Shown piece by piece: positions 4,375 through 24,692 of a stretch of 64,000 nt of DNA. This DNA comes from Gammaproteobacteria bacterium (GTDB lineage Bacteria; Pseudomonadota; Gammaproteobacteria; UBA4575): positions 244,470 to 308,469 of the forward strand of contig OY730298.1 in assembly GCA_963422595.1 (NCBI GenBank), given 5' to 3'. The notes beneath the pieces are model-generated. The model worked only from the letters and a program-made list of their open reading frames with translations. It was not told where the DNA came from and did not search any database. Numbering within the stretch: the first letter of the stretch is position 1; every line of letters starts with the position of its first letter. A program made the translations under genes and the position numbers.

Positions 4375-5262
4375 CTAGTCGGGGCCGTTACGCGCATAAA
4401 ATATGTCGTCCATTTCCTGTTTGAGCTGCTGCCTGATGGCGGCTAACTGATGCGCCTGCAATGCATTTCTGTCGTTTCCAAACAGGTAGTTGTCTATGTT
4501 GAAATGGCGTAACAGCATTTTGGTATGAAAGATGTTTTCCGACGCCAGGTTCATGTCTGTCATGCGGTACTGCTTGCTGATACGAGCCGATAAAAAATCC
4601 TGCATTGAGCGAATGTCATGATCGAGGTAATATTTCCGTCCGGCCGTGTCGCGCGTAAATCCGCGCACCCGATAGTCCAGTATCACGATGTCTGCGTCAA
4701 AACTGTCGATCAGATAGTTCAGGGCCTGCAGCGGAGATACGCGCCCACAGGTGGATATGTCCAGGTCGGCGCGAAACGTGTTAATGCCGTTACCGGAACG
4801 ACACTCGGGATAGGTATGCGCCGTTACGTGGCTGGTATCCAGGTGCGCCATTGCCGATTTTTTTAACGCGCCGACTGCCACCTCCGCGCGCGCGTTGCGC
4901 CGGGAGGTAGCAGCGGCAGTCATCACTGGCTGTTCCGAGATCAGGCAGGCAACACTGGCACCACGTGGTTCATAGTCGTGCGTGGCTACATGTAAAATAT
5001 TGGCGCCGATGATTGCGGCAACTTCGGCAAGTACCCGTTGTAAGCGTCGCGTGCCGTAGGTTGCATCTATATATTGCAGATATTCCCGTTGCTGCGTCGG
5101 CGTTTGCGTATAACGAATATCATAAAAATTAATACTTAAGGTCTTGGTAATGTGGTTAAGCCCAGGTGCCTTGATGGCAGTATCTCTGTAGATGTCGTGG
5201 TTGCCGGAAGATTTGCCACGTCGGGTGGCGTTAGTTGTCAGCTTCCAGTATTGCATAATCAT
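4375..5262 (-). CDS. speD: S-adenosylmethionine decarboxylase proenzyme (class II, SpeD)
   Basis: The HITKTLSINFYD region aligns with E. coli SpeD (LTKSLSFCIYD), and the rest is collinear. The N-terminus is about 25 aa longer than E. coli and overlaps the 3' end of the upstream gene, so the exact start is uncertain. Confidence 0.85.
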   Translation of the reverse strand: MIMQYWKLTTNATRRGKSSGNHDIYRDTAIKAPGLNHITKTLSINFYDIRYTQTPTQQREYLQYIDATYGTRRLQRVLAEVAAIIGANILHVATHDYEPRGASVACLISEQPVMTAAATSRRNARAEVAVGALKKSAMAHLDTSHVTAHTYPECRSGNGINTFRADLDISTCGRVSPLQALNYLIDSFDADIVILDYRVRGFTRDTAGRKYYLDHDIRSMQDFLSARISKQYRMTDMNLASENIFHTKMLLRHFNIDNYLFGNDRNALQAHQLAAIRQQLKQEMDDIFYARNGPD

Positions 5263-5662
5263 AGGATATATCTACGCTGCTACGTAACATTATTGCCACC
5301 GAGCAGTATTTTTGCATGGATAGCTCTACGGCGCGCTTTACAAACCTTGCGTTCAGATTTGTGCCGCCCACCACAAAGTGCAGGTGAACGTGGGTAAATA
5401 CGGCTGGAATTTTGTCGGCACGTGTGGCTTCTATGGTGATGTGACAGTCTGCTACGGATTGTTGCGACTTTTGCAATATCTCTACCACGTCAAAGGCGCT
5501 GCATCCCCCCAGGCCTGCCAATACCATTTCCATGGGGCGCGCCGCCAGATTCTGGCCACCATGGTGCGGCGGTCCATCCATCTGAATGGTGTGCCCACTG
5601 CCGGTTTCGGCTATAAACCGCCGCTGCCCTATCCATTTAATTTGCACTTTCATGGTTATCAC
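5231..5662 (-). CDS. OsmC/Ohr family peroxiredoxin-like protein
   Basis: About 140 aa with the OsmC-type fold signature (GGPPHHGGQNLAARPMEMVLAGLGGCSAFDVV) and the two conserved Cys residues. The start is probably MKVQIK at 5653. Confidence 0.8.
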   Translation of the reverse strand: MITMKVQIKWIGQRRFIAETGSGHTIQMDGPPHHGGQNLAARPMEMVLAGLGGCSAFDVVEILQKSQQSVADCHITIEATRADKIPAVFTHVHLHFVVGGTNLNARFVKRAVELSMQKYCSVAIMLRSSVDISYDYAILEADN

Positions 5663-17105: not shown

Positions 17106-18286
17106 ATGATTAACAGGCGAATCGAGATTAAACCATTGATGGTCAACAATTCCGAACTTGGGCTGGCAATGACGGGCGGCGGTGCGCGTGCTGCCTATCA
17201 GGTAGGTTTGCTGCGGTTTATTTGTAGAGAATTTCCCGATTTTTGTCCGCCTGTCATCACCGGGGTCTCCGCTGGTGCAGTAAACGCGGCATATCTGGCC
17301 GCGTATCCAGGTACTTTTTGTCAGGCCGTAGAAGAATTATCGAAATTTTGGCTGGAGCTTGGCACTGATAATATCTTTCGTACCGATAGCCGTTATTTTC
17401 TGATTGGTTTCATAACGTTGGGGATTTCATTTCCTGCTTGGCGGAAGCCGGTTAGCACCACAAACGCGCGGCTTGCTGGATAGCCAGCCATTACGTTTTT
17501 ACCTGGAACAAAAATTCAATAATAAAGCAGCACTTCCGATACCGGGGATACGCCAGAATATCGCTGGCGGTCGTTTACAGGTGCTCGGTATTACCAAGTA
17601 CTAATTACAGCACTGGCAAATCGATTACCTGGATACAGGGCCAGGCACGCGATCATTGGAAACGGCCACGGCGTCGCAGTGCCTCAGTTGAAATTACCAT
17701 TGAACATATCATGGCTTCGGCAGCATTACCGCTGGTGTTTCCCGCGGTGAAGCTCAACGATGGCTGGCACGGAGATGGCGGCATACGTTCCATTGCGCCA
17801 CTATCTCCGGCTATGCATCTGGGTGCCACAAGAGTGGTGGCAATTTCCACGCGCTTTCAAGGTGCTCAGATTACTCCGGATGAACCGATGACTTCTGAGT
17901 ATGCTTCGGTAGCACAGATCATCGGCATTATACTGGACGCTATTTTTTTGGACCTGCTCGATTATGACGCCGCCAACATAGAGCGTATCAGTGAACTTAT
18001 TGAAGAGGTTTCGGAAGATACGAGAAAGCAGTTCAGGAGCGTGCAACTCTTGATTCTTCGCCCTTCCAAGGATTTAGGTAAACTTGCAAGTGAGTTTGAG
18101 TTTCGTTTGCCACAGCCATTCCGCTATTTCACGCGCAGTTTCGGCACGCGCAATACTAGAAGCCCGGACGCTTTGTCAATGTTGATGTTTCAGCATGAAT
18201 ACCTTGAGTCTCTAATTGATCTTGGCGAATACGATGCGGAACAAAATTTCGCACGTATTGAAGAATTTTTAAGCGCGAAACCATAA
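17106..18286 (+). pseudogene. patatin-like phospholipase, disrupted by frameshifts
   Basis: The N-terminal part in frame 0 has GGGARAAYQVG and the GVSAGA nucleophile elbow, then stops at 17483. Patatin-like sequence continues in frame +1 (17485-17604: LRFYLEQKF...LQVLGI) and then in frame +2 (...VEITIEHIMASAALPLVFPAVKLNDGWHGDGG...), running to the stop at 18286. Confidence 0.75.
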
Positions 18287-19628: not shown

Positions 19629-19827
19629 GTTGACTCCTTATGTAGTTAGCCAGTCAGATATTTTTGTTTATTTTATGACTTAAATAGCTGAAGATATACC
19701 CCTTCCATGAGAACGCTATCCTGACGTGCCTGCGGAACCTCGGCTGTTTTCGCCACCCCAACAGTTATGCCGCTTTATCCTGTATATATTCTTTTGAACT
19801 ACACATTATCCTGGTTACCAGGTTATT

Positions 19828-20277
19828 ATGCCTGGTCTTCACGAATCAGAACCAGGCATTCACGATATGAATGATAAATCTCCAGAATTATTGGTCGTGC
19901 AGCTAAACGGCTCGGCAATTCTTGAATATGATCGCAATCAACAGTTATCGAAGGCCCAGCGTCGGGCGCTTACATTGATGGATGAAAAATTGGATCAGGG
20001 AATAAGCCTGGGCGATGAGTTCATCCCGCAACCCGGTTTAGAGCAGCGTGTCGAATTCATCGCCGCGAATTTGGTTTCTGCTTTGTTAAATGCAGAGGAC
20101 GTGCTGGCCGCCGCAAGTTGCGCATATCTGGCGAAGGCGTTACCCGAACTGAAACAGATCAAGGCATTGGAAAAAAGTGGCCAGGTAGCAATCGAGTTAA
20201 TCTTCAACCGTGAATACCAAAAAGAAGTAAAAATGCAGTATAAACCTTTAAGTGAAATTGCCACGTCGCTACATTAA
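19828..20277 (+). CDS. hypothetical cytoplasmic protein
   Basis: 149 aa, predicted soluble helical protein, divergent from metY. No family was recognised. The start may be the internal MNDK at 19867. Confidence 0.5.
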   Translation: MPGLHESEPGIHDMNDKSPELLVVQLNGSAILEYDRNQQLSKAQRRALTLMDEKLDQGISLGDEFIPQPGLEQRVEFIAANLVSALLNAEDVLAAASCAYLAKALPELKQIKALEKSGQVAIELIFNREYQKEVKMQYKPLSEIATSLH

Positions 20278-20511
20278 ATCTCCTCTGTCTCCTGAATATT
20301 AAGGGGCTTAGTCTACCTGTGGATACGGCCAGGGTTTTCAGATGAAGGATGAAAAACTACCTGCCTGAGGCCTGTTGGTGAAGAAAAGCAATTATTTGGA
20401 GCAGTCTAATGTGGGAAAACCCCGGTGGGGACAAAATATTGGCAATGGACAATTCGTAGAGTCTTTTAAGCGCTTGAAGTCGCCAATGAATTACACTATG
20501 CTGATGATGCT

Positions 20512-20928
20512 ATGACCCCTGAGTTAATCGGAATTTTAGGCGTTGGCGCTGCCCTTGCCGGGCTGATTTTTACTGGTCAGCGAAACCTGGGACAACGCAT
20601 CAGTGAAACTAACCAGCGCATCAGTGAAACTAACCAGCGCATTGATCGGCTGGACGCTCGCATTGATGAAACCAATCAGCGCATGGATGATATTAACCAG
20701 CGCATTGATGATATTAACCAGCGCATTGGTCGGCTGGACGTTCGCATGGATGATACTAACCAGCGCATTGATGATATTAACCAGCGCATTGATGATACCC
20801 ACCAGCGCATTGACCAGCTGGAAGTTCGCATGGATGGACGGCTGCGGGACGTAGAGCATGGCATGGCCAGGCTGGAAGGTTTACTTGAAGGCCTGCGCGA
20901 AGCAATTGCCGGCAGACGTGCTGCATGA
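20512..20928 (+). CDS. membrane-anchored coiled-coil protein built from tandem heptad repeats
   Basis: An N-terminal TM helix (LIGILGVGAALAGLIFTG) is followed by twelve 7-aa repeats (QRISETN / QRIDDIN variants), each encoded by one 21-bp unit, and then a C-terminal helix (GRLRDVEHGMARLEGLLEGL). Confidence 0.6.
   Translation: MTPELIGILGVGAALAGLIFTGQRNLGQRISETNQRISETNQRIDRLDARIDETNQRMDDINQRIDDINQRIGRLDVRMDDTNQRIDDINQRIDDTHQRIDQLEVRMDGRLRDVEHGMARLEGLLEGLREAIAGRRAA
20593..20844 (+). repeat. 12 tandem copies of a 21-bp unit (consensus CAGCGCATTGATGATATTAAC), in frame within the CDS
   Basis: Direct reading shows units at 20593, 20614, 20635 and so on up to 20824. Several units are identical or near-identical (20677, 20698 and 20761). 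Confidence 0.9.
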
Positions 20929-21228
20929 ACACAGTTGGTATCGTCCGAACCGGTCCGCCGTCTGCCAGTCAGCGAGGCATGGCCAGGCGCCAACATTAAT
21001 ACTGTATTAGCAGTTAAAGCTCCGAAACCATTACATAATTAGTAGTCAAAACAATGACTTAAAAAGTTTCCCGGCAGGGCCGTTGTTTCTCTGCAACAAA
21101 AGTTTCATAACCGTAAGCAATAATCTTGCGGAATACCATACAAATAGACAAGGGAACTTGTTAAGTTTTTCTTAGACTTAAATTTAAGTGTGTAATTTTC
21201 GAATAAAATCAGGGGGATAATTAGGTGT

Positions 21229-21498
21229 GTGTTTTTGCTATTGTTTTGGATCATGCCAATCAGGATGTTAAAAAGCGTATTAAAGACAAATATCCAAATT
21301 ACTATTCCATGTCAGACACTTTTTTTTCTTGTCTCTACAGATGTCATCGCAGAAACTATCGCGATTAATGTTGGGATTAAAGGCGATGATCGTATTGAAG
21401 ATGCAAACGGCGTTGTTTTCAGGCTGAAAGCTTCATATTCAGGCTACGCTGCGCGTTCTCTTTGGGACTGGCTTGCGCAGGCCGAAAAACGGGGATGA
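21229..21498 (+). CDS. hypothetical protein, probably frameshifted at a T8 tract (the reading frame should join upstream frame 21228-21327)
   Basis: A frame beginning GTG 21228 (VFAIVLDHANQDVKKRIKDKYPNYYSMSDTFF) terminates shortly after the T8 run at 21320-21327. The downstream two-thirds of this ORF (LVSTDVIAETIAINVGIKGDD...YSGYAARSLWDWL) read as a globular protein. The ORF-track N-terminus (MFLLLFWIMPIRML) is poorly protein-like. Confidence 0.35.
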   Translation: MFLLLFWIMPIRMLKSVLKTNIQITIPCQTLFFLVSTDVIAETIAINVGIKGDDRIEDANGVVFRLKASYSGYAARSLWDWLAQAEKRG

Positions 21499-21785
21499 GC
21501 GTGTCGCAGCTTAAATCTATGGAAAAATTTCAACCTGAACCGAACACCTCGGCAACGTCAGAGGACGGAGGCGATGGAACTAATGGAGACGATGGAACTA
21601 ATATTGAAGGGCGGCTGGCAAGATTGGAAACCCACATACAATATCTTGCTACAAAAGAAGATATTCAAAGAATTGAGACCTTAATAGAAAAAAAGGAGTC
21701 ATCAATATTAAAGTGGCTGGGAACCCTCATAACTGCTGCTTTAATCAGCATAGTGGTTGCCTTGTTCAGGACATTTTGGTCTTGA
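21495..21785 (+). CDS. small protein with a coiled coil and a C-terminal TM helix (XhlA-like topology)
   Basis: 96 aa starting at MSVSQLK. It has an acidic Gly/Asp-rich region containing the duplicated GDGTNGDDGTN, a coiled coil (IEGRLARLETHIQYLATKEDIQRIETLIEK), and a C-terminal TM helix (WLGTLITAALISIVVALF). It overlaps the upstream ORF's stop. There is no homology evidence. Confidence 0.45.
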   Translation: MSVSQLKSMEKFQPEPNTSATSEDGGDGTNGDDGTNIEGRLARLETHIQYLATKEDIQRIETLIEKKESSILKWLGTLITAALISIVVALFRTFWS

Positions 21786-22444
21786 TTATTGCCCTTTACC
21801 GGATTGTGTATTGTCCCTCGCGTTTCCCGTTCTCATAGAATCGCCCGGTGCCAATAAGCACATCAGCAGGAAGTTTGTCAGGCGTTTCGCGGAACGTAAG
21901 TATATAACTCTCATTTTCAAGGTAGTTGGAGTTGTCATTTTTTTTTGGCTTTAATGTGAAACGCGCGCATGGAATATTTAATAGCTGGTTTCATTGTATA
22001 GCGAATTACCTTTACCAAGAGAAGGCTTGATGACTGGATTACGACAGTGGAATATTTTTGCCGTAACGAACGTAGCGCGCGACTGTCATACTGCCTGCTG
22101 CCGGGTGGTGGATTGCTGTTAATGGAACACTTTCACGACAATAGGGGATAGTTGGAAACAGGATTGCATATTGTGGTTAAATTACAACAAAAATAGCTTG
22201 ACTTGCCGCCGTGCACAAGGCATCCTGTCGTGCAAATGCAACGCCTGTTGTATTTGTCCTGATATGTGAAGTTAATAAAGGATTGCTGACGTTCACCTTC
22301 AGGTTGAGAATGAATCATGCCAAAGGAGGTAATGCACCCTAAGTGAATTAAGGGCCGCAATAAGCGCATAGTGAGTTCTTTAACAACCAGGAAAATTACT
22401 CGAGTATTTTTCTTTGATTAAAAAACTGAAGAGGAGAATCTTCA

Positions 22445-23761
22445 ATGAAAATTAAACTATTAGGAGCCGCGCTTGCACTCGGCATGGTGACGTTGCCACT
22501 GGCATCGTTCGCTGGTGTCGGTGGTGGCAACGCGAACTCAAACTGGACCATCTACGGTTGGCAGAACTGGGCAGCGGACCACAGGTCAACTGACGTGGCT
22601 GGCCGTGAACGCGACCAGATTAAAATGGAAAACGAGGCCGCCAACATCGGCTTCGCAGCTTCCATTGACACTGGTATGTCCATGGCTGGTACGGCCATCA
22701 AGGCTAACTTCCAGTGTGAACAGTTCACCACCTTTAACCGCTTAAGTGCGTTTGGTCATAACGGCTGGTGTAACCGTAACAGCAAATTAGGCCTTAGCGG
22801 CCCTTGGGGTGAAATCATGGCATCCGGCTGGCTGACGCCTTATAACGAGGTAACCGCCCAGTCTATAGACCCCTTCTATGACGCCGGCAGTCACACCCAT
22901 TCCACCCTGCTTGGCCTGGTCGGCTTCGGCACCAACTACGGTAACTCTGGCTTTGACGGCACAGGTTACGGAAGCGGTGTAGGCGGACAGGGCTTCATGC
23001 GCCGCAAGGCCAACATGTTCCAGTGGTTCTCACCCGCCAGCTGGGGCGGCCTGCACGTGCGTGTCGGCTGGTCAAATGACAACTCCTATCACTTTGGTGG
23101 TGAAGAGCATGTGGTAACCACCAGCACAGGTGAGAGTAAGGAGGTAGACCCGGAAATATTGTCCATCGGCGCTTCCTACACCACCAAGATTGGCAACGAC
23201 GAGTTGTGGGTGGCCATCGGTTATCAGCAACATGACGAATGGGCAGCTGCTGCCATGTCATGTGAAGACTCTGATGACGAAACTATCCGCTATGCCGTCA
23301 AGTTCACCAAGGACTGGGGCAACGGTCATTCTACCCGTCTCTCTGCTGCCTATGAAGACATGGAATACGACTGGGAATACTGTGCTGAAACTGGGAATGG
23401 GCCATTTGCTGGATCAATGGTCGATTTCGAGCGTGATGCCTGGTTAGTCTCTGGCAAGCACGACTTCCCCGGCCCGCTGGACTTCCGCTTTATGTACATG
23501 GAAGCCGACGACTTTGAATGCGGTAGCTCTATGGCCATGGGTGATAATGATTGTAACGGCATCAATGAGACTAATTCCGGTGCTGACGCCTTCTCCGTCG
23601 GTCTGTATTACACCATGCCCGCCGGTACCGAGTTGCGACTGGTCTATGGTGAAGTAGATAACGACGATAACTCCCAGAATGACTTCGGCATCAATGCCGA
23701 TGGCGTTCGTATGGGTGGAAAAAACGAAAGCTGGCAAATCGGTATGGTGCAGTGGTTCTAA
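22445..23761 (+). CDS. outer-membrane porin (general Gram-negative porin-like beta-barrel)
   Basis: Signal peptide (MKIKLLGAALALGMVTLPLASFA), Gly/aromatic-rich amphipathic strands, and a C-terminal aromatic residue (..MVQWF) typical of OM beta-barrels. A strong terminator follows. Confidence 0.7.
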   Translation: MKIKLLGAALALGMVTLPLASFAGVGGGNANSNWTIYGWQNWAADHRSTDVAGRERDQIKMENEAANIGFAASIDTGMSMAGTAIKANFQCEQFTTFNRLSAFGHNGWCNRNSKLGLSGPWGEIMASGWLTPYNEVTAQSIDPFYDAGSHTHSTLLGLVGFGTNYGNSGFDGTGYGSGVGGQGFMRRKANMFQWFSPASWGGLHVRVGWSNDNSYHFGGEEHVVTTSTGESKEVDPEILSIGASYTTKIGNDELWVAIGYQQHDEWAAAAMSCEDSDDETIRYAVKFTKDWGNGHSTRLSAAYEDMEYDWEYCAETGNGPFAGSMVDFERDAWLVSGKHDFPGPLDFRFMYMEADDFECGSSMAMGDNDCNGINETNSGADAFSVGLYYTMPAGTELRLVYGEVDNDDNSQNDFGINADGVRMGGKNESWQIGMVQWF

Positions 23762-23833: not shown

Positions 23834-23927
23834 ATGCGCACGCCCTATGCGGTGATGAATCTGTTGCCGGCAGACTGTATATTTGCTTACACTTATATTG
23901 CTGACACTAAAAAATGGTATTCACTAT

Positions 23928-24692
23928 ATGTTGATCAAACGAATTTTTCTGCTTGGCTGCCTGGCATTTTGTATGCCGAACATCGGGTTTTCCGCCTGTA
24001 ATAAAGACGATATCGAATTCTATTTAGAAAAAGGTTTTAGCCAGGAACAGATCACGCAATTATGCGCCGCGTCCGAGGCCGCCGTTCCGGACTATAAACC
24101 TTATCAACAACAGGTCATCATCTATCGTGAAGGAGAAGGGCCTGGTATTAAAGACGGCTTTACGCGTGATGAGAGGGTCGCCATCAAGGATCTACAGCAG
24201 GGTGCAGACGTGGCTGGATTGGTCGTCGATCAGGAGTCGATTCAGTATACGGTAAAAATATGTCTGGCGGTGCAGGAGGGTAAAGAATACAGCCGACGCT
24301 TCAAGACTTGTCCCGAGGTATTTTACAAGGTGCTGCGATCAGGACTGGTGGTTACCGCTTCTGGCAAGAAATACGGCGTGTTAGGCAAAAATGCGATTGT
24401 TATCCAGGGCATCATCAAACGCGAATCCAAGCAAGACTTCGATGATTATCCCGTACAATTTAAAAAGCAGTTAAAACGTCATTTCGACTGGAAAACCAAA
24501 GGAAATACTACCAGGATACCGGTGCGTGGTGACTATTCGGTCACCAGGCTCGTCAATGCGTTAAATGCTTTATCAACAGCGGCGGACGCGAATGTCAACC
24601 TGGCTCAACACGAGACTGGCAGTAATCCCGATAAGATGACGGAAGAGGCCAAAGTGAAAAAAAAGAAGCGCTGGTGGAACCCGTTTGACTAA
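23928..24692 (+). CDS. putative lipoprotein or secreted protein of unknown function
   Basis: Likely start at ATG 23928 (MLIKRIFLLGCLAFCMPNIGFSAC), giving a signal peptide with a Cys at a lipobox-like position. The C-terminal tail is Lys-rich (KVKKKKRWW). No family was recognised. Confidence 0.55.
   Translation: MLIKRIFLLGCLAFCMPNIGFSACNKDDIEFYLEKGFSQEQITQLCAASEAAVPDYKPYQQQVIIYREGEGPGIKDGFTRDERVAIKDLQQGADVAGLVVDQESIQYTVKICLAVQEGKEYSRRFKTCPEVFYKVLRSGLVVTASGKKYGVLGKNAIVIQGIIKRESKQDFDDYPVQFKKQLKRHFDWKTKGNTTRIPVRGDYSVTRLVNALNALSTAADANVNLAQHETGSNPDKMTEEAKVKKKKRWWNPFD

Follow-up and report, generated by a model that had tools for sequence, protein, structure and literature searches.

A putative composite insertion upstream of a gammaproteobacterial porin gene combines a repeat-bearing membrane protein with a broken copy of an undescribed two-gene cassette

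The locus between orf149 and the porin gene

The DNA under study is a stretch of 64,000 nucleotides (the window; assembly GCA_963422595.1, contig OY730298.1) from a gammaproteobacterium of the UBA4575 lineage, and the segment of interest lies within it between metY and orf149 on one side and a porin gene on the other. metY and gpmI, both on the minus strand, stand one at each side of the locus, and PDH and Tat genes are also among its neighbours. Three small genes, all in the plus orientation, are present in the open reading frame (ORF) map of this segment (Table 1). The first, rep138, codes for a protein with an N-terminal transmembrane (TM) helix (residues 5–23) and contains a repeat array detected with Tandem Repeats Finder (TRF; score 335). 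The second, gene A, is interrupted at a tract of eight thymines (T8), and the third, gene B, codes for a 96-aa protein with a coiled coil (residues ~36–68) and a C-terminal TM helix (residues 71–89). A first-pass annotation of the stretch had already described these three genes, together with the porin and a gene for a 269-aa secreted or lipoprotein-like protein downstream of it, and this description was borne out.

The same annotation had placed the genes in an AT-rich island with a GC content below 40%. This was confirmed in part. The GC content of 20280–22440 is low (0.441, against an average of 0.485 for the window), which places it among the lowest 3% of windows of this size, and a sliding-window comparison over the 64 kb finds a lower value at 59.6–60.3 kb. 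Values of 0.33–0.35 are reached only at 21000–21450, and the rep138 gene has a GC content of 0.52. The GC content at third codon positions (GC3) of rep138 is ordinary (z = +0.24), and among the three inserted genes only A (z from −2.5 to −3.9) and B (z = −2.1) stand out; the atypical composition extends over A, B and the spacers, but not over rep138.

Table 1. Features of the locus (positions in the window)
Feature	Coordinates	Strand	Remarks
orf149	19828..20277	+	Conserved left flank, outside the insertion; homologues in L015 and L016
Putative lineage-specific insertion	20278..22169	.	Absent from the orf149–porin interval of L015 and L016; right edge from the leader alignment
rep138, 138 aa, N-anchored coiled coil; heptad stalk variable, C-terminal ARLEGLLEGLREAI conserved	20512..20928	+	
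Twelve repeat units of 21 bp (heptads), with a higher-order period of 84 bp	20593..20844	+	TRF
AT-rich non-coding stretch, probably the upstream region of the cassette itself	20929..21224	+	GC 0.40 overall
Gene A, predicted Cas2/VapD-like ferredoxin fold, frameshifted (pseudogene or switched off)	21225..21498	+	
T8 tract, frameshift site; T7 restores the frame (ACT TTT TTT CTT = T-F-F-L)	21320..21327	+	
Gene B, 96 aa, predicted tail-anchored coiled-coil membrane protein with LATKED β-layer motif	21495..21785	+	
Non-coding tail of the insertion, holding a T9 run	21786..22169	.	No alignment with L015 or L016
Conserved porin promoter/leader, right flank, outside the insertion	22170..22444	+	Leader alignment
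Porin, conserved flank	22445..23761	+	Porin_4, E = 1.3e-20; 44% identity to the syntenic L016 gene

A comparison of metY–porin intervals in related strains, proposed in the first-pass annotation, was carried out with metY as the anchor, and the closest genomes available were a Gammaproteobacteria metagenome-assembled genome (MAG; L015), with a metY 86% identical, and a Thiotrichales MAG (L016), with a metY 76% identical. In both, a homologue of orf149 (66% identity in L015, 32% in L016) is found ahead of the porin or of the porin leader: in L015 about 860 nt separate orf149 from a porin-type leader and start, and in L016 a spacer of 654 nt lies between the orf149 homologue and the porin, after which come the 269-aa gene and gpmI. 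The genes rep138, A and B are all missing from this interval in the two genomes, and an alignment of the window with either relative begins near 22170 and extends to the ATG of the porin, the identity with L015 being 71% over 287 nt. Because orf149 directly precedes the porin leader where the three genes are lacking, the segment from 20278 to about 22170 appears to be an insertion specific to this lineage, as judged against these two relatives. This insertion is composite, since its GC3 composition splits it in two unrelated elements, rep138 and an A–B cassette. No integrase, transposase, adjacent tRNA or flanking direct or inverted repeats were found at the insertion, where the repeat matches are short and attributable to chance. 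The horizontal acquisition suggested in the first-pass annotation is in agreement with the lineage specificity and with the foreign composition of A and B; the GC3 of rep138 is native-like.

An Rfam scan of 19–25 kb gave no genuine match, promoter and terminator scans performed no better than on shuffled sequence, and no ORF with homologues exists in the non-coding tail (21786–22169), which makes up part of the 659-nt gap between B and the porin. The T9 run of this tail is located at 21938–21946; five A/T runs of at least 8 nt occur in the window, and two of them (T8 and T9) are inside the 1.9-kb insertion.

Gene A and its frameshift

Gene A starts with a GTG codon preceded by a Shine–Dalgarno sequence (AGGGGGA, 21211–21217). 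Its frame 0 stops at 21368, and it is the +1 frame that runs on to 21498. When one T of the tract is deleted a 90-aa protein is obtained, to which homologues of 87–94 aa align from end to end with 51–59% identity; since this alignment spans the frameshift site, the frameshift is genuine at the sequence level, as the first-pass annotation had reported. A Logan contig (L001, run ERR11641160) is 100% identical to the window over 20762–22021 (1260 nt), T8 included, and elsewhere in the window coding sequence makes up 87% and intact ORFs reach 919 aa, which makes a general homopolymer-error problem unlikely. In the homologues, the residues T-F-F-L are encoded by mixed TTC and TTT codons, and none of the seven has a run longer than T5 at the site; therefore, the T tract is not a conserved switch. 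The tract has the same length, T8, in both assemblies (the window and the Logan contig), and simple pseudogenization is a more economical reading of it than phase variation.

A profile search of 1.84 billion representative proteins returned 492 clusters of the A family (E ≤ 1e-3), that is, some 500 clusters at 50% identity, nearly all of them stand-alone proteins of about 90 aa. Among the long members no fusion to B was found, their additional length being due to miscalled starts or read-through. No match to A exists in Pfam, NCBIfam, PHROGs, PADLOC or any sequence of the PDB, and not even Cas2, VapD or BPSL1038 was recovered at E ≤ 10 when the A3 profile was compared with all PDB sequences. 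Likewise, no member was detected in IMG/VR or in JGI metagenomes (scans with alignment A1), nor by tblastn in sequenced plasmids and phages (50,697 phage records).

The fold of A was approached through an AlphaFold2 model, which with 106 sequences has the topology βαββαβα and a predicted local distance difference test (pLDDT) score of 95.4 (42 with five sequences). The top seven Foldseek matches of this model are all BPSL1038 or Cas2, and a fold search of BFVD gave no significant match. According to the model, A would be a cytoplasmic protein of about 90 aa with a ferredoxin-like fold, βαββαβ(α), of the kind found in Cas2, VapD and BPSL1038, the last one being a Cas2/VapD-like nuclease with a D11(X20)SST site (PMC10491678). 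In contrast to these proteins, with which it has no match at profile level, the A family does not conserve the catalytic Asp that Cas2 carries at the end of β1, despite the common fold: position 9 is D in 27 of the 106 members, T in 15 and E in 14, and position 10 is E in 42 of them. The invariant or near-invariant residues are instead G50, G62, V64, G73, W80 and W82. A further difference from Cas2 is that neither cas1 nor a clustered regularly interspaced short palindromic repeat (CRISPR) array accompanies A, which is always paired with a membrane protein.

Gene B, a predicted tail-anchored β-layer coiled coil

The start of B overlaps the stop of A (ATGA). Few homologues of B can be detected; the B proteins, of about 75–105 aa, consist of a disordered N-terminus rich in acidic residues and Gly, a coiled coil with the motif LATKED and a C-terminal TM helix, and their conserved core is [IL]-E-x-R-L-x-R-L-E-T-x-x-x-Y-L-A-T-K-E-D-I. 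For β-layers, a consensus [aliphatic]-A-T-K-[polar]-[DE] and its register have been published (Hartmann et al., 2016; PMC4786415). The segment L51-A-T-K-E-D56, followed by I57(a), I60(d) and I64(a), fits both the consensus and the register βββ-efg-a, the motif being present in five of the seven B proteins, and the B profile matches the Tcar0761 construct 5apz (E = 0.0019). Both observations suggest that B may form a trimeric stalk. From the charges flanking its TM helix, B is predicted to be a tail anchor, with its N-terminus and the bulk of the protein in the cytoplasm.

Similarities of B to known families are consistent but below threshold, and involve XhlA, DUF2730 and CCDC90-like/DUF1640 proteins. 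XhlA of the prophage PBSX (PF10779) is a membrane protein that acts with the holin XhlB (PMC5589764), and B resembles it in size (around 90 aa), in the placement of the coiled coil ahead of a C-terminal TM helix, and in a weak alignment to the full-length hidden Markov model (15.2 bits, E = 0.025), which is to be read against a gathering score of 34.7 bits. Five of the seven members of the B family match XhlA, all weakly (best E = 0.024), and rep138 does so with 28 bits, also below the gathering score. Among PHROG families, B matches the holin phrog_689 (E = 2e-4) and the hemolysin/XhlA family phrog_1193 (E = 0.011). Unlike XhlA, B is coupled to a protein of Cas2 fold, and is found without adjacent holin or endolysin genes and outside any phage context. 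The XhlA-like fold put up for testing in the first-pass annotation is borne out for the architecture; the similarity is weak. With the DUF1640/CCDC90-like proteins and DUF3782 (Tcar0761) B has in common the β-layer motif in canonical register followed by a coiled coil (PMC4786415) and, with DUF1640, also the C-terminal TM helix. However, B is much shorter than these proteins, its trimeric state is deduced, and no match to PF07798 at E ≤ 1 was obtained with the B of the window (two of seven B relatives match it weakly, best E = 3.7e-4).

The A–B pair in other genomes

A B-like gene comes after A in every readable context, nine independent ones including the window. Canonical B, with coiled coil and C-terminal TM helix, occupies this position in the window, L002/3/4, L005, L006, L096 (where annotators left it uncalled), L098 and L154, and in L097 B is decayed. 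The overlap of stop and start codons is usual in the pair and is of ATGA type in the window, L006, L095, L096 and L098. In L095 (507–971), the partner of A is a different protein of 154 aa in which a central TM helix is followed by a coiled coil; evidently, the architecture of the partner can be swapped while the combination of membrane anchor and coiled coil is kept.

The genes that surround the pair are diverse. In L002, A–B is located within a type I restriction-modification locus, between a full-length PDC-S06 protein (E = 1e-299) and a PDC-M24B protein; L005 has a PD-T4-4_A-like ATPase and, beside the pair, an IS1595 transposase; and L097 has HEC-01A and HEC-01B. Another IS1595 transposase adjoins A–B in L096, and a HicB antitoxin gene does so in L098. 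Thus, A–B is found among defence candidates in three of nine contexts (L002, L005 and L097) and beside IS1595 or HicB genes in L005, L096 and L098, figures that are plain counts from nine sampled contexts. The distribution of the pair crosses phyla and its synteny is not conserved. Lysis genes were not found at the other A–B loci, and neither were relatives of rep138 at the eight other A–B contexts. A–B is an AT-rich, compositionally foreign and mobile two-gene cassette, previously undescribed and without a Pfam, NCBIfam, PHROG or PADLOC model, of which the window contains a broken copy.

The rep138 family

A homology search with rep138 retrieved 645 proteins, and its motif was found at 54 further loci in metagenomes, in proteins of 50–166 aa. 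Common traits of the family are an N-terminal TM helix, a variable stalk and a near-invariant C-terminus. The stalk changes widely in length and sequence, being built of heptads of RIDETNK type or of hendecads of EVNKSLGARID type, while the C-terminus, D-x-RLR-x-VEHG-x-A-[RK]-LEGLLEGLREAI-x-GR, hardly changes; its peptide RLRxVEHGxARLEGLLEGLREAI is near-invariant in the family, and the C-terminus is invariant in alignment A4. rep138 belongs, as a stand-alone member, to a widespread and unnamed family of small inner-membrane proteins. Its invariant tail, in which LEGLLEG is GxxxG-like, resembles an element for docking or helix packing carried on a ruler of adjustable length. A literature search found no paper with the motif LEGLLEGLRE. 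Clustering of the neighbours of the 54 loci gave no recurrent partner, in a data set in which ORF calling is crude for the high-GC contigs.

The family is very abundant in a few metagenomes (L099–L152; prefixes MKWU01, LXNI01, LXNJ01, Ga0209021, Ga0209022 and Ga0209544), where many distinct copies differ mainly in stalk length (50–166 aa), and two or three paralogues occur in some genomes. P0008, a protein of 89 aa encoded outside the 64-kb window, has ends nearly identical to those of rep138 and only about five heptads; a 28-aa block present once in P0008 is triplicated in rep138. For this reason P0008 is likely a paralogue of rep138 in the same genome, and rep138 looks like the expanded copy. 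Exact look-ups of both sequences returned no record. The absence of rep138 itself from the protein collection might be due to the choice by gene callers of long antisense ORFs that exist in the array (20536–20859 and 20676–20996, minus strand).

In profile libraries, rep138 matches 169 Pfam and 186 PHROG families, all below the cut-off except marginal ones such as DUF5798 and LXG, and no Pfam or NCBIfam family is convincingly above threshold. Matches to SMC, JetC, Rad50, spanin, XhlA and others in Pfam, PHROG, PADLOC and NCBIfam were discarded because they reflect coiled-coil composition and not homology. The Rz-type i-spanins, which are N-anchored coiled-coil proteins, resemble rep138 in that a long coiled coil comes after a TM helix at the N-terminus, and weak PHROG matches exist. 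However, in the family members examined no K or R precedes the TM helix and two to five follow it, so that rep138 is predicted to have an N-out/C-in topology with a cytoplasmic stalk, opposite to that of the i-spanins; moreover, neither an o-spanin nor an endolysin is encoded at the locus, and the C-terminal LEGLLEGLREAI peptide has no counterpart in the Rz-type i-spanins or other N-anchored coiled-coil proteins.

Several ideas of the first-pass annotation about the relation between the membrane proteins have to be revised. The D/GRL.RLE-type motif said to be common to rep138 and B is generic for coiled coils (hhalign gives a probability of 1.5% for the B family vs. the rep138 family). Their opposite topologies are correct for the order of the elements in the sequence, but the predicted location of both coiled coils is the cytoplasm, which makes a role as surface protein or adhesin unlikely. 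As for the single three-gene module, it is contradicted by the lack of rep138 at the eight other A–B contexts and of any recurrent neighbour.

Proposed function and alternative explanations

As in a toxin-antitoxin (TA) module, A and B are small, co-oriented and translationally coupled genes kept as a pair, with a patchy, mobile distribution and an association with defence or mobile genes. The nearest analogy would be the type V system GhoS–GhoT of E. coli (GhoS structure, 2llz), reportedly described by Wang and co-workers in 2012. GhoS–GhoT also consists of two small co-oriented genes whose sizes and order match those of A–B, the first product having a Cas2-like ferredoxin fold and the second being a small inner-membrane protein. 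By this analogy, A–B may work like a small TA or abortive infection (Abi) module, in which B, with its presumed trimeric stalk and an architecture similar to XhlA and holin accessory proteins, would be the effector and act on the membrane, while its partner A, in the cytoplasm, would restrain or sense it. The copy in the window would be decaying or silenced. The frameshift cuts the translation of A short at a point 127 nt ahead of the B start codon, and should therefore abolish translational coupling to B as well.

The whole of this explanation, a composite insertion with a decaying A–B pair of TA or Abi type, has in our opinion a probability of roughly 0.5. Its structural and evolutionary part is probable, and the assignment of A–B to the TA/Abi modules is tentative. 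Several facts weigh against the explanation. The insertion has neither direct repeats nor integrase nor adjacent tRNA, and it was defined against two relatives, both at species level or beyond, in which the genes may also have been lost. The proposed TA/Abi role is drawn from architecture, fold analogy and neighbourhood; several copies of the pair lie amid housekeeping genes, as in L154 (after clpB), L006 and the window, as well as in L098 (between prpD and rplU); and A is without matches in IMG/VR and among sequenced phages and plasmids, nor does any model of PADLOC or PHROG match it. Furthermore, A is broken and B intact in the window, which is unexpected for an indispensable antitoxin, and the decay in L097 is the opposite one. 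These same housekeeping contexts, the non-conserved catalytic Asp and the tolerated breakage of A beside an intact B would suit an accessory pair not involved in conflict, such as a stress or assembly factor tethered to the membrane together with a soluble partner, patchy in distribution and dispensable here. This alternative is unlikely in view of the three contexts amid defence candidates, the three with IS1595 or HicB neighbours, the foreign composition of the cassette in the window and its spread across phyla without conserved synteny.

Other alternatives concern the T8 tract. It could be a phase-variable switch, on as T7 and off as T8, toggled by slipped-strand mispairing in a cassette that is regulated and not dead; a variant would be slippage during transcription, or a +1 slip of the ribosome on UUU UUU U, yielding some full-length A. 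The homopolymer is indeed inside the ORF, exactly where one base mends the frame, the ORFs of B and of the 3′ portion of A remain uninterrupted, with the ATGA coupling preserved, and two of the five long A/T runs of the window fall in the insertion. We nevertheless regard a switch as improbable, because no length polymorphism is seen between the two available assemblies, the tract is not conserved in the homologues, no slippage stimulator is evident, and the two ordinary frameshifts of a nearby patatin gene (see below) exemplify plain pseudogenization in this neighbourhood. Alternatively, the extra T might be a sequencing or assembly error, the true tract being T7 and A–B intact and working. 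Among assembly artefacts, single-base errors in homopolymers are the commonest, the contig seems to derive from a metagenome, and the Logan run is perhaps not independent of the deposited assembly; yet the identical T8 in the separately built Logan contig, the high coding content of the window and the fact that its other 8-nt runs break no genes make such an error improbable.

A remnant of prophage lysis genes has also been considered, with B as an XhlA-type holin accessory protein and rep138 as an Rz-like i-spanin left behind by a prophage since deleted, in line with the lysis-like cassette of the first-pass annotation. The XhlA and PHROG matches of B quoted above, and those of rep138 to Rz-like spanin PHROGs (E = 6e-7) and XhlA, speak for it. 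However, all these scores are under the curated thresholds, the promiscuous matches of rep138 are a matter of coiled-coil composition, and its predicted topology is the reverse of that of an i-spanin. Within ±8 kb there are no phage genes, be it a holin, an endolysin, an o-spanin, an integrase or any other, no adjacent tRNA was found, and A has no relative in IMG/VR, the phage records or BFVD, so that this origin seems very unlikely. Even less credit can be given to rep138, A and B as one envelope module: the genes are adjacent, co-oriented and jointly absent from the two relatives, but they do not co-occur elsewhere, differ in composition, are separated by a 296-nt AT-rich gap between rep138 and A, and show no detectable homology between rep138 and B. 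The preferred reading, a composite insertion with a decaying A–B cassette, admits a bolder extension that joins two proposals and that we consider tentative: A–B would be a new and widespread type V-like TA/Abi system of defence islands, in which a Cas2/VapD-fold A controls a β-layer trimeric B and which is toggled by the T tract or silenced here, and rep138 would belong to an unnamed family of membrane 'ruler' proteins that display an invariant LEGLLEGLREAI peptide on a stalk of freely variable length.

Porin leader and neighbouring genes

About 270 nt of what had been taken as a long porin leader are the native leader of the porin. Its conserved elements (22170–22444) are a GCTTGACTTG box, a CAAATGCAACGCCTGTTGTATTTG hairpin and a AATTACTCGAGTATTTTT palindrome just upstream of the Shine–Dalgarno sequence, and the promoter and leader are kept in three species (the window, L015 at ~150–420 and L016 at ~5022–5290, minus strand). 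No Rfam family matches this leader, which may be a cis-regulatory 5′ untranslated region or the target of a small RNA. The gene of the 269-aa protein (23883–24692, plus strand) is conserved and syntenic with L016 2779–3603, and its product ends in KKKKRWWNPFD and matches no Pfam family. It has a lipobox-like GFSAC in the window; the L016 orthologue has VWAEC in its place, so the lipoprotein status is doubtful.

On the other side of the locus, both relatives carry between metY and orf149 a gene for an ExeA-like AAA/TPR protein (778 or 606 aa) and another of about 153 aa (L015 1403–5397, L016 6082–10000). These are present neither at 19629–19827 nor elsewhere in the window, which points to the metY–porin neighbourhood as a rearrangement hot spot. 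Directly next to metY, the gene of a patatin-like phospholipase (17106–18286, plus strand) is divided into three frames by a +1 frameshift near 17420 and another near 17595, the latter being an extra A in CCAAG relative to L015. This second pseudogene indicates that pseudogenes occur in this neighbourhood.

Biological significance

In this genome, the locus is a small insertion, probably decaying, without obvious effect on core metabolism. The rep138 family offers a neat case in which the in-frame expansion of repeats tunes the length of a membrane-anchored stalk with an invariant peptide at its end. The wider value lies in the A–B pair, in which a predicted Cas2-like fold is coupled to a putative tail-anchored β-layer coiled coil and which recurs beside candidate defence systems. 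If A–B proves to be a TA or Abi system, a new effector architecture would be added to those systems, and it would be a further case of proteins with the Cas2/VapD fold taking part in conflict systems outside CRISPR.

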